Shown: in pieces, positions 22,748-25,682 of the stretch
How the letters are laid out: the number at the start of each line of letters is the position of its first letter
Numbering within the stretch: position 1 is the first letter of the stretch
Origin: an uncultured Actinomycetes bacterium
GTDB lineage: Bacteria > Actinomycetota > Thermoleophilia > Gaiellales > Gaiellaceae
Assembly: GCA_963781435.1 (NCBI GenBank)
Contig: CAWAGR010000025.1
Coordinates: forward strand, 72,339-136,338
Direction: 5' to 3'
DNA: 64,000 nt
Made by a program: the position numbers and the translations under genes
Notes under the pieces: model-generated
Databases searched by the model: none
Seen by the model: only the letters and a program-made list of their open reading frames with translations
What the model was told of the DNA's origin: nothing

Positions 22748-23951
22748 CTACGCCGCCAGCAAGCCGGTCACGTACATCACCGCGAGCCCGGCGAGGAAGC
22801 CGCCGACCGCGTAGCCCGAGGTGAGGCCGCCGGGCGCCCGGCGCTTGACGAACCGGCCCACCTCGACCACGACCTGAAGCGCCGCGCCGGCTGCGGCCGC
22901 GAAGAAGAGCACCGCGAGCAGGTCGCTCCCCGAGTAGCCGCCGATCCACGCGCCGAGGATCGCCGGCGCGCCTGCGATCAGCGTCAGCCCGGCGAGCGTC
23001 CGGAGCGGGATCCGCGCCTGCTCGCCCTCCTCCGCGAGCGGCGCGGCGATGCCCGAGGCCTTCGGTGACGTTGTGGATCATGAAGCCGACGATCAGGAAC
23101 GTCCCGAGCGAAAGCTCGCCGAGGCCGAACGACGTGCCGATCGCGAGTCCCTCGCCCAGGTTGTGCAGCCCGATCCCGACCGCGACGAGCGTCGCCAGCG
23201 CCAGGCCGGAGACGACGCCCTTGCGGCCCGACGTCCGCGCCGAGATGAACGTGATCGTGAGGAAGCTGACCGCCACCCCGAGGAGCACGAGGCCCGGGCC
23301 GCCGAGCATCCCCGGCAGCGTCGTCTGCAGCTCGAACGCCTCGAACAGCGCCTCGATGCCGAGAAACGTGAGCAGGCCCGCCGTGAGCGCCATGAACGCG
23401 GCGAGCCACTTCGCGTCGGCGCGCCGCAACGATGGCAGCCAGAGCAGCCCGAGCGCGATCGGCAGTACGCCGACGAGGAAGCCGATGATCGCGTAGCCGA
23501 GGAAGCCCTCGGGCGACGGGCTCGGCGTCTCGATTGCGGCCGGGATCTCCTTCACCGTCTCGATCCCGGTCGAGCTCGTCACGCCGACCGTCATCGGGTC
23601 ACCCTCGACCCAGTCGAACGGCACGACGATCGTGCTCGAGCGAAGCCGGCCGAGCTCGCGCGGGCCGTCGAGCGCGTACGGCACGATCGCGTCGTCCACC
23701 GTCACCGAGGCGATGACGAGCTCCTCGCGCTGCGGGTTCGTGACCCTGATCCGGATCTCGCCTGGCGAGAGCTGGACGCGTCGGATGTCGAACTCGTCTG
23801 CGGGCGGCGGGTTCTGGCCGATCAGGTCGACGAGCGAGGAGCCGGTCTGGGCGAACGCGCCAACCACCAGCGCGAGCAGAAGGATCGGGCCGAGCGCCCA
23901 GAGCCGCCAGCGAAGCCCGCCCGAGCCGGTTTCGGCAGTGCCCGCCTCCAT
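22748..23951 (-). pseudogene. ZIP-family metal transporter with an N-terminal TM anchor plus ~125-aa extracytoplasmic domain; one indel in the CCC run at 23052-23054
   Basis: ZIP core ([17 protein letters not shown]...[11 protein letters not shown]) then shifts frame to [38 protein letters not shown]...[11 protein letters not shown]-stop. The ATG at 23951 overlaps the oxidase stop (TGATG). Confidence 0.8.
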
Positions 23952-24970
23952 CAGTCGGTCACGTCGAAGAAGCCCATCCAGCCGAGCTCCGTGAACTCCG
24001 ACTGGTGCGCGTGGAACATGAACTTGCCCGTGTTCGCGAACTCGATCTCGATCACGCCGCGCTGGCCCTGGCACTGCATCACGATGTCGGTGTACTCCCA
24101 GTGCTCGCCGGTGCCGTTCGGCTGGTAGCGGAAGAAGTCGGCGTGGAGGTGGAACGAGTTGATCAGATCGAACTCGGTCAGGTTCGCCAGGTAGAGCCGG
24201 ACGGGCTTCGAGCGGCTGACCCGGATCGGGTAGCGGGCGTAGTAGAAGGTGCGGCCGTTGACGGTGTAGAAGTTGTTGCCGCCGTCGCCGTCGGTGTCGT
24301 AGCCGTTCATCACCATCACGAGCTCCTGCGCCTCCGGGCGCGGCTCGGCCGGGTCGATGATCAGCGCGCCGTAGAGGCCCTTGTGGATGTGCTTCTTGAG
24401 CGGCGTCGAGTGGCAGTGGTACGGGTGGAAGCCGGCGGGCCGCGCCTCGAACTCATACGTGAACTCGTCGCCGGGGTCGACGATCTCGAAGACGCCGTCC
24501 ATCCCTGCCGGGTGGATCCCGTGGAAGTGGATCGTGTGCGGGTGCGAGCCGGCGTTGACGAACCTGACCCGGAGGATGTCGCCCTCGGTCGCGCGCAGCA
24601 CGGGGCCCGGCACGGTGCCGTTGTAGGTCCAGGCCGGGTAGAAGACGCCCGGCGCGACCTCGATCTCCTTGTCGACGGCGGTGAGGGTGTAGTCGCGCAC
24701 GCGGCCGGGCTTCGCCGGCAGCGGCGGCGGCGGGTAGAGCAGGCTGTCGAGGTCGTGCGGGCCGCCCACGGCGGGCGCGCCCTCGCCGATCATCGCGGCG
24801 TGGCCCATCCTTGCGTGGTCGGCGAAGGCCGCGCTCAGCGAGCGATGGGAGGCGTGGTCGTGGCCTGTCGCGCCTGCGCTCTCGCCGAACGCGAGCTTGC
24901 CCACGATCGGCGCGGCGGCGAGCGGGGCGGCGGCTGCGAGCAGTCCGCGACGAGTGAAACGTTTAGTCAT
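23951..24970 (-). CDS. Two-domain multicopper oxidase family protein with Tat-type signal (NirK/small-laccase-like)
   Basis: [24 protein letters not shown] (twin-arginine). Cupredoxin His motifs: [45 protein letters not shown]. Confidence 0.8.
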
Positions 24971-24985
24971 AGCTAACTCTGACTA
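24964..24985. promoter_or_regulatory. Candidate DtxR/MntR-type operator overlapping a palindromic -10 element in the divergent promoter region
   Basis: tagtcatagctaactctgacta is 18/22 self-complementary (TAGTCA-N10-TGACTA). It overlaps the self-complementary GACTATAGTC (24981-24990), which gives TATAGT on both strands. This is the only strongly AT-rich stretch in the neighbourhood. Confidence 0.45.
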
Positions 24986-25025
24986 TAGTCTCACCTGAAC
25001 CTCATGGGCAAACCGAACCGTCTCA

Positions 25026-25682
25026 ATGGGCAAGCCGGCCGTCTCGAAATCCGCCGAGGACTACCTGAAAGCGATCCTGCAACTCGAGAGCGCGGGCGCT
25101 GCGACCACGAGCGCGATCGCGCTGCGGCTCGGCATCTCGCAGCCGTCGGTCACGCGGATGACGAAGAAGCTGGCCGCGGACGGGCTCGTCGTCCGCGTTC
25201 CCTACCGCGGCGTCACGCTGACCGAGCCCGGCCGGCGGGTCGCGCTCGAGGTGCTCCGCCACCACCGGCTGCTCGAGCTCTATCTCGCCGACGCGCTCGG
25301 GCTGCCGCTCGACGAGGTCCACGCGGAGGCCGACCGCCTCGAGCACGTGCTCTCGGAGGAGCTCGAGTCGCGGATCGATGCCGCGCTCGGCTACCCGACG
25401 CACGACCCGCACGGCCACCCGATTCCGGACCCCGAGCTTCGCCTCGACGCTGCCGTGCGGCGCTCCCTCTCGGAGGTGGCGCCTGGAGAGAGCACGACGG
25501 TCGTGCGCGTCCCGGACAGCGACGCGGACCTTCTCCGCTATCTGGGCGAGCTCGCGCTCGTGCCGGGCGCCACGGTCGAGGTCGTGGCGCAGGCTCCGTT
25601 CGACGGGCCGATCACCCTGCGCTCGGGCTCGGGCGAATACGCAATCGCGCGCGAGCTGGCGATTGCGATCGCCGTCGCATAG
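25026..25682 (+). CDS. DtxR/IdeR/MntR-family metal-dependent transcriptional regulator
   Basis: SAEDYLKAILQLE...SAIALRLGISQPSVTRMTKKLAADGLVV...RHHRLLELYL...HAEADRLEHVLSEELESRI...THDPHGHPIP, plus a C-terminal SH3-like domain. Confidence 0.9.
   Translation: MGKPAVSKSAEDYLKAILQLESAGAATTSAIALRLGISQPSVTRMTKKLAADGLVVRVPYRGVTLTEPGRRVALEVLRHHRLLELYLADALGLPLDEVHAEADRLEHVLSEELESRIDAALGYPTHDPHGHPIPDPELRLDAAVRRSLSEVAPGESTTVVRVPDSDADLLRYLGELALVPGATVEVVAQAPFDGPITLRSGSGEYAIARELAIAIAVA

Follow-up and report, generated by a model that had tools for sequence, protein, structure and literature searches.

An Oxidase-Permease Module with a Manganese-type DtxR-family Regulator in an Uncultured Gaiellaceae Bacterium: A Putative Mn(II)-repressed Uptake System for Divalent Metal

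Why would a bacterium encode an exported multicopper oxidase (MCO) together with a metal permease of the ZIP family, and which metal would the two proteins serve? This question is raised by positions 22,748 to 25,682 of a 64-kb stretch of DNA (contig CAWAGR010000025.1 of an uncultured bacterium of the family Gaiellaceae; the whole stretch is hereafter called the window), where a gene for a DtxR-family regulator diverges from an oxidase gene that is followed by a ZIP gene. To our knowledge, no multicopper oxidase with a ZIP importer as its obligatory partner has been characterised. We found that the window locus is one copy of a widespread module. We further propose, with a probability of roughly 70%, that it specifies a Mn(II)-repressed uptake module for divalent metal, most likely Mn(II), composed of a DR2539/MntR-like repressor, the oxidase and the ZIP permease. 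This reading, which draws on sequence comparison and on analogy to studied systems, is suggested because the oxidase-ZIP pair is conserved, because its candidate operator matches the box of the manganese sensor DR2539, because the regulator has kept Mn-type metal ligands, and because Nramp genes recur as neighbours. An initial annotation of the same DNA had already recognised a regulated oxidase-permease module, and that part stands, whereas the iron-based logic that it borrowed from the yeast Fet3/Ftr1 system is better replaced by uptake of divalent metal under the control of a Mn sensor.

The principal features of the locus, with the evidence for each, are:

23951–24970, minus strand: multicopper oxidase of 339 aa, predicted to be exported by the twin-arginine translocation (Tat) pathway, with two domains, read as type C (Pfam, PDB matches, copper motifs)
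23052–23951, minus strand: 5' part of the ZIP gene, residues 1–300, in which the ZIP core begins and both HNxxEG motifs lie (translation, tblastn against an intact relative, AlphaFold2 (AF2) model, match to BbZIP)
22748–23053, minus strand: 3' part of the ZIP gene in another frame, residues 300–400 and the stop codon, the residues ending at 22751 (tblastn)
25026–25682, plus strand: DtxR-family metal-dependent repressor of 218 aa, MntR/DR2539-like (Pfam, NCBIfam and PDB matches, ligands)
24962–24977, no strand assigned: candidate operator, the 16-bp palindrome TTTAGTCATAGCTAAC, with its TTAG-N6-CTAA core at 24963–24976, lying over the oxidase start codon (conservation, position weight matrix)

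The oxidase-permease pair

Our comparison covered 81 module loci, of which 80 came from a scan of species-representative genomes; the remaining one, L001, is from a close relative (89% identity to the window) and served as the reference for reading frame and spacer. The loci are distributed among Actinomycetota (Gaiellales and others), Gemmatimonadota, Chloroflexota, Bacillota, Verrucomicrobiota, Acidobacteriota, Methylomirabilota and Eisenbacteria, with one from Nitrososphaera. The initial annotation had named co-occurrence of the oxidase and the extended ZIP protein in other genomes as a check on its proposal. In all 78 loci that include upstream DNA (78 of 81; three have none), spread over about nine phyla, the oxidase gene lies directly upstream of the ZIP gene on the same strand. 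When all open reading frames (ORFs) in the flanks of the loci were clustered, three families alone were common across them: the ZIP protein, the oxidase and the DtxR-family regulator. These are the three genes first annotated in the window; all are real. The coordinates also confirm the annotated one-base overlap of the pair (TGATG), the ATG of the ZIP gene (23951–23949) sharing one base with the TGA stop codon of the oxidase (23953–23951).

The oxidase has the features that were expected of an exported two-domain enzyme. Its twin-arginine motif reads TRRGLL, its Cu-oxidase_3 (PF07732, 77.7 bits) and Cu-oxidase_2 (PF07731, 70.4 bits) domains both score above their cutoffs, and it contains four HxH motifs (HFH 148–150, HCH 185–187, HLH 274–276 and HAH 320–322). 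All four line up with those of the PDB entries 3GDC and 7RAB, and their eight histidines make up the set of a trinuclear copper cluster. A type-1 copper site, with ligands assigned by motif spacing, is found in domain 1 only, where Cys186 of the HCH motif is followed by His194 and Leu199 (an axial leucine); the HAH motif of domain 2 has no cysteine. From this arrangement of motifs, we read the protein as a type-C two-domain multicopper oxidase. The same two entries are its best PDB matches (3GDC, 327 bits; 7RAB, 320 bits; residues 90–338), but their names carry no function or gene context, and our literature search returned no paper on either. The segment that links the Tat signal to the first cupredoxin domain (residues ~30–90) is variable in sequence yet rich in histidine, also in homologues: at least three histidines occur in this tail in 28 of 28 parsable homologues, with about 10% histidine overall.

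It had been allowed at the outset that the oxidase might group with nitrite reductases and sit in denitrification contexts. We rejected a NirK identity because the matches to 3GDC and 7RAB lie far above those to NirK structures (at most 111 bits) and because TIGR02376 reaches 90.8 bits, over the N-terminal half only, where its cutoff demands 296.3. Further, the clustering of flank ORFs yielded no conserved denitrification genes around the pair.

The membership of the permease in the ZIP family is supported by several comparisons, for which its two parts were stitched into a protein of 400 aa. A profile-free search of 1.84 billion representatives gave 290 clusters of homologues at E < 1e-30, among them many full-length proteins of about 400 aa with 31–57% identity. 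The stitched protein scores 22.1 bits against Pfam PF02535, below the gathering cutoff of 35.1, and many of its close homologues carry a precomputed match to this family. The Bordetella transporter BbZIP (5TSA) is matched over residues 121–392 by phmmer (E 1.9e-8) and is the top Foldseek match of the structural model (E 1.6e-7, TM-score 0.68). The motifs HNLGEG in transmembrane helix 4 and HNVTEG in transmembrane helix 5 are nearly invariant in 56 homologues.

The AF2 model, computed with an intact homologue as the query and 56 aligned sequences, has a pLDDT of 90 and a pTM of 0.86. It places a transmembrane helix at residues 11–44, a seven-strand beta-sandwich at 55–136 and the helical ZIP core at 147–399. 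The first two elements correspond to these features of the window:

23820–23921, minus strand: TM0, the additional transmembrane anchor of the ZIP protein (AF2 model)
23544–23789, minus strand: Ig-like beta-sandwich ectodomain of the ZIP protein (AF2 model)

The model thus bears out the extra anchor and the extracytoplasmic domain that the initial annotation had recognised ahead of the ZIP core, although the domain measures about 100 aa between the helices rather than about 125. In the established topology of ZIP proteins, the N-terminus of the core faces outward. Because one extra transmembrane helix precedes an outward-facing N-terminus, the sandwich, according to the model, lies outside the cytoplasm and shares its compartment with the Tat-exported oxidase. 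A separate model of the sandwich reaches a pLDDT of 86. Its fold matches are archaeal pilins, FlaG/FlaF and DsbD-alpha, with weaker matches to PCuAC and CopC, all of which represent a generic Ig-like fold, and no His, Cys or Met of this domain is conserved in the alignment of the ZIP family. We therefore gave up the attempt to assign a function to the ectodomain from its fold. Given the lack of conserved His, Cys and Met, the domain seems likelier to serve for docking than to bind metal.

Operator, promoter and regulator

An alignment of the regions upstream of the pair in Gaiellales reveals a conserved palindrome, TTTAG(G/A)C-AT-G(C/T)CTAAA, which has the CATG at the start codon of the oxidase as its midpoint. 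Its TTAG-N6-CTAA core occurs once in the 64 kb of the window, against 0.03 expected, and the window site scores 22.1 bits with the matrix AATTTAGGCATGCCTAAATT, which was built from sites found in the loci; the next best site in the window scores 5. Across 1.04 Mb of locus DNA, there are 71 such boxes, whereas base composition would predict about 1.5 by chance. Nearly all of them lie, singly or in pairs, at the 5' end of the module, as in 57 related loci. The box is placed across the oxidase start or, in operons that begin with the regulator, upstream of the regulator gene. Loci in which no regulator adjoins the pair also contain the box, and two copies lie upstream of the Nitrososphaera oxidase. 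In the loci without a regulator, an Rfam search revealed no riboswitch near the pair. From its sequence context, placement of the box over the +1 position and the start codon would be typical of a repressor site.

A different inverted repeat, an 18/22 palindrome, had originally been put forward at this location. The 9+9 repeat (24964–24972/24977–24985) does exist in the window, but its right arm is conserved neither in L001, whose spacing differs despite 89% identity, nor in other Gaiellales, and we rejected it as the operator. The TTAG-N6-CTAA box shares only the left arm of this repeat.

Between the operator and the regulator gene lie two further features:

24982–24989, both strands: overlapping TATAGT -10-like hexamers, at 24987–24982 on the minus strand (oxidase) and 24984–24989 on the plus strand (regulator) (sequence)
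25004–25025, plus strand: tandem repeat of 22 nt that imperfectly copies the 5' end of the regulator gene, with an out-of-frame ATG at 25004 (direct repeat D2)

The sequence GACTATAGTC (24981–24990) reads TATAGT on both strands, and the oxidase -10 element is 11 nt from the ATG, exactly as first described. A promoter scan assigns the minus strand a sigma-70-like promoter of the form TTGCCC-18-TATAGT, and no Shine-Dalgarno-like sequence is found between the -10 element and the oxidase ATG. A nearly leaderless oxidase mRNA had been suggested from this geometry. Because a TAnnnT hexamer is kept in the Gaiellales relatives, 6–17 nt before the oxidase start, it is plausible that the transcript has a very short leader or none.

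The regulator is indeed divergent from the oxidase, but the 55-nt spacer that was taken to separate them consists of 33 nt plus the 22-nt copy of the 5' end of the regulator gene. This duplicate is absent from L001, in which 34 nt lie between the start codons of the oxidase and the regulator. The duplicate does not displace the -35-like TTGCCC of the oxidase promoter, and its out-of-frame ATG sits where the relatives have the start codon of the regulator. If it is real, the duplicate could lower expression of the regulator; it could equally be an artefact of assembly.

The link between the regulator and the pair, which had been drawn from the window only, recurs in other genomes. In the flanks of the pair, a regulator gene is present in 36 loci and in three arrangements: divergent in Gaiellales and Eisenbacteria; upstream and co-directional in Gemmatimonadota, Methylomirabilota and some Anaerolineales; and downstream and co-directional in Anaerolineae and one Solirubrobacterales genome. 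Because the linkage survives such rearrangement, it constitutes good genomic evidence of a functional tie.

The window regulator contains three domains above their cutoffs: PF01325 (the winged helix-turn-helix), PF02742 (Fe_dep_repr_C, for dimerisation and metal binding) and PF04023 (FeoA/SH3-like). Its top NCBIfam match is the Thermus-type MntR, NF047407, but the score of 212.8 bits against a cutoff of 350 marks it as a relative and not an equivalog. In the PDB, the best match is DR2539 (8PVT, E 3e-45), followed by 5ZR4, and IdeR and DtxR score far below DR2539 and MntR. Mapped by alignment, the ligand sets of DR2539 recur in the window protein: the primary site (D12, D103, E106, H107), the ancillary ligands of the binuclear site (H80, E84, H99, D127, H129, H131) and the additional “tertiary” ligands (E75, H79, E111, E114).

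The type of metal signal can be approached through two positions. A set of carboxylate and histidine ligands in place of Met10 and Cys102 of DtxR is the Mn-type pattern in the established work on selectivity in the DtxR/MntR family. Among the 41 module-linked regulators, the Met10 position is Asp in all 41, and the Cys102 position is Glu, Asp or Gln; none has Cys there. Since the regulator has Mn-type ligands and not the Fe-type Met/Cys pair, Mn is more likely than Fe to be its signal, as judged from sequence. The initial annotation had described an Fe/Mn sensor of the DtxR/MntR type; the family assignment is upheld, but the ligands do not favour the iron half of that description.

The operator is also reminiscent of DR2539, the Mn sensor of Deinococcus radiodurans (PDB 8PVT/8PVZ). 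Its operator in the mntH promoter is ATTTTAGTCGCGCCTAAAAT, and its Mn ligands have been listed (bioRxiv 10.1101/2024.02.12.579695). The window regulator retains the ligand sets, and the window box has the same TTAG-N6-CTAA architecture, whereas the target is an oxidase-ZIP operon instead of mntH, operator binding in the window is a prediction from sequence, and Glu102, Asp130 and Gly43 of DR2539 are replaced by Asp, His and Arg. Further, in nine loci from four phyla, the pair has an Nramp/MntH gene as its neighbour; the divergent promoter and the box are common to both in three of these nine, and one has the gene order dtxR-Nramp-MCO-ZIP.

Proposed function and competing explanations

In the mechanism that we propose, the Mn(II)-loaded DR2539/MntR-like repressor would bind the palindrome TTTAGnCATGnCTAAA, as homology suggests. 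The bound box would overlap the -10/+1 region and the oxidase start codon, and the short-leader or leaderless bicistronic mRNA would thereby be turned off; when Mn(II) is scarce, the oxidase-ZIP operon would be expressed. The oxidase, presumably trimeric, would be exported by Tat together with its His-rich N-terminal tail. Translation of the ZIP protein would be coupled to that of the oxidase, and its extra helix would set the Ig-like sandwich in the oxidase compartment, where we infer that oxidase and ectodomain could make contact. The permease would most likely import Mn(II), possibly along with other divalent ions, and the oxidase would act as its obligatory extracytoplasmic partner. There are precedents for the two halves of this scheme: Corynebacterium glutamicum MntR is reported to repress the ZIP-family gene mntT (cited in PMC11933003), and ZIPs contribute to Mn import in Salmonella and Streptococcus (PMC9334652).

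Several facts weigh against this scheme. The oxidase has no obvious use in the import of Mn(II). No regulator lies within 7 kb of the pair in about half of the Gaiellales loci or in any of the four Bacillota loci (4/4), and the TTAG-N6-CTAA box is absent from the Bacillota loci. For DR2539, a response to Fe(II) has been reported in addition to that to Mn(II), which would make it a dual repressor (PMC3327659) and leaves Mn selectivity uncertain. Nine loci, as many as for Nramp, have a gene for a cation diffusion facilitator (CDF) efflux protein beside the pair. Under Cu limitation, expression of the homologous pair of Nitrososphaera viennensis rises slightly (PMC7785015). Finally, the ZIP frame of the window is broken and a decoy ATG precedes the regulator gene, so that this copy might be non-functional should the sequence be right.

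The response to copper leads to an explanation in which Cu(I) is oxidised outside the cell by the multicopper oxidase and the resulting Cu(II) is imported by the ZIP protein. This mechanism was proposed for the archaeal pair, for which log2 fold changes of 0.81 (MCO1) and 1.33 (permease) were measured under Cu limitation (Reyes et al. 2020, PMC7785015). The His-rich tail of the oxidase and the weak resemblance of the ectodomain to the chaperones CopC and PCuAC would suit it. Yet the linked regulators have Mn-type ligands without Cys or Met, the operator matches the box of a Mn sensor, and the Nramp neighbours point to Mn or Fe; the ectodomain, for its part, has no conserved His, Cys or Met, and its chaperone matches (TM-scores of 0.3–0.55) are those of a generic beta-sandwich. 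We thus consider copper acquisition quite improbable for the window locus. Iron would be the metal if the locus were a counterpart of Fet3p/Ftr1p, with a ferroxidase coupled to a permease and a DtxR-type regulator that responds to Fe(II). Such a system would share with the yeast one the obligatory pairing of a multicopper oxidase with a metal-uptake permease, and it could call on the iron sensors IdeR and DtxR within the regulator's family, on the dual response reported for DR2539 (PMC3327659) and on the ability of ZupT-type ZIPs to carry Fe(II) (PMC9334652). The comparison to Fet3/Ftr1 in the initial annotation, however, is valid only at the level of logic. The yeast system combines the Ftr1 permease with a membrane-anchored oxidase of three domains, whereas the window encodes a ZIP and a soluble, Tat-exported oxidase of two. 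Oxidation would yield Fe(III), which is no known substrate of a ZIP; these permeases carry divalent ions, and oxidation followed by transport is therefore not directly transferable. The module-linked regulators, moreover, are without the Fe-type Met10/Cys102 pair, and IdeR and DtxR fall far behind DR2539 and MntR as matches. We regard an iron system of this kind as distinctly unlikely.

Detoxification would invert the direction of the scheme: the oxidase would clear periplasmic Mn(II), Cu(I) or Fe(II), and the ZIP protein would export or redistribute metal under excess. Some multicopper oxidases, such as CueO and the Mn oxidases, do guard against metal stress, and the CDF efflux neighbours would be at home in such a system. 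It is nevertheless hard to credit. DtxR-family sensors act as metal-loaded repressors, and with a box over the promoter and start codon, expression would therefore be expected at low metal; ZIPs import into the cytoplasm; and Nramp importers share the box. On a different plane, the locus in this particular genome could be a decaying pseudogene, with a broken ZIP gene and a mis-started regulator. The break is at this position:

23052–23054, minus strand: frameshift site, GGG where intact relatives have GG (alignment against L001)

One extra G is present in the window (CTCGGGCATC, against CTCGGCATC in L001). The frameshift and the 22-nt duplicate, whose out-of-frame ATG would be the decoy, were both missed by the initial annotation, and together they make the case for decay. 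The remainder of the gene does not look decayed: by tblastn, both halves are 85–90% identical to intact relatives and free of in-frame stops, and the stitched protein has 93% identity to intact proteins across 100% of its length. Two other genes within the same 5 kb are broken as well. An adenosylhomocysteinase gene (21014–22400, minus strand) is split over at least three frames in comparison to the intact 422-aa protein of L001, which suggests assembly indels in that part of the contig, and a phosphoribosyltransferase-like gene (18323–18852, minus strand) is split over two frames relative to L001. Many of the related records are metagenome-assembled genomes from long reads. The sequencing runs contain only fragments of relatives, none of which spans 23052–23054 cleanly. 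Because neighbouring essential genes are also frameshifted and many relatives are long-read assemblies, we infer that the ZIP frameshift is probably an assembly indel and not the mark of a dead gene; decay of the locus is unlikely.

Within the Mn(II)-repressed uptake module that we favour, a role for the oxidase could be conceived as follows. An oxidase trimer docked on the ZIP ectodomain might serve as an oxidative selectivity filter, in which O2-driven oxidation of Fe(II) and Cu(I) at the mouth of a promiscuous ZIP would leave redox-inert Mn(II) as the only ion to enter under Mn starvation. We offer this idea as a speculative one, with the odds well against it. If it were true, the module would be a prokaryotic counterpart of Fet3p-Ftr1p with a different permease and an inverted logic, and the long-unexplained MCO1 of ammonia-oxidising archaea would acquire a function.

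Relation to known systems and genomic neighbours

The initial annotation had called the module undescribed, which is true only in part. Kerou et al. 2016 is reportedly the source cited for an MCO1 + ZIP pair in archaea. In ammonia-oxidising archaea, this pair has been recognised and linked to the idea of a Fet3p-like copper uptake, with a second hypothesis for MCO1 that concerns hydroxylamine (PMC7785015, PMC5817080, PMC5767755); the papers on these archaea treat MCO1 as confined to Thaumarchaeota. Thus, both the pair and the analogy to Fet3p are already in the archaeal literature, but our literature search turned up no paper that treats a bacterial MCO-ZIP-MntR module or the Mn-type control of such a module.

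The archaeal and the window pairs agree both in their proteins and in their gene order. In the Nitrososphaera locus (L057; oxidase 5931–6950, ZIP 6947–8134), the ZIP protein is 41% identical to that of the window over residues 19–398, ectodomain included, and the oxidase is 54% identical. The type-1 copper site of archaeal MCO1 also has an axial Leu. Whereas the archaeal literature is concerned with copper and hydroxylamine, the window pair is bacterial, is Tat-exported, and is associated with Nramp genes and with a DtxR regulator of the Mn type. A regulatory parallel comes from another actinobacterium, C. glutamicum, in which a Mn-responsive DtxR-type repressor, MntR, controls the ZIP-family transporter gene mntT (cg1623; Baumgart and Frunzke 2015, cited in PMC11933003); the text consulted mentions no oxidase.

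The pair is found in many soil phyla in addition to the ammonia-oxidising archaea, where proposals for the function of MCO1 have been debated for a decade. The Mn-type sensor, the recognisable operator and the repeated adjacency of Nramp genes now supply a concrete hypothesis, namely metal uptake induced by Mn starvation. Cultured Bacillota also carry the pair (Paenibacillus baekrokdamisoli, Fictibacillus phosphorivorans, Cohnella thermotolerans and Croceifilum oryzae), and these organisms are more tractable than archaeal nitrifiers or uncultured Gaiellales.

Other neighbours of the pair were also noted. Downstream of the ZIP gene, the small ORF at 22385–22711 (minus strand) has no Pfam match in the window; its product shares 67% identity with a MerR_1-family protein of L001. 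This ORF is kept only in close relatives and probably lies outside the module. The CDF genes stand beside the pair in L013 (8178–9161), L034, L041, L054, L056, L059, L064, L070 and L075, which belong to three phyla, and some of the encoded proteins have His-rich N-termini. In six loci of Gemmatimonadota (L040, L044, L046, L050, L051 and L069), a protein of about 290 aa is encoded 3' of the ZIP gene. It has a weak match to Phenol_MetA_deg, an outer-membrane beta-barrel family, and might be an outer-membrane channel of the module. In L054, from an Anaerolineaceae genome, a second box precedes a group of genes at 10216–12614 that encode a cytochrome-c-like protein, a small ORF, a PEMT/ICMT-like membrane protein and the CDF protein; the regulator in this genome may control more than the oxidase-ZIP pair.

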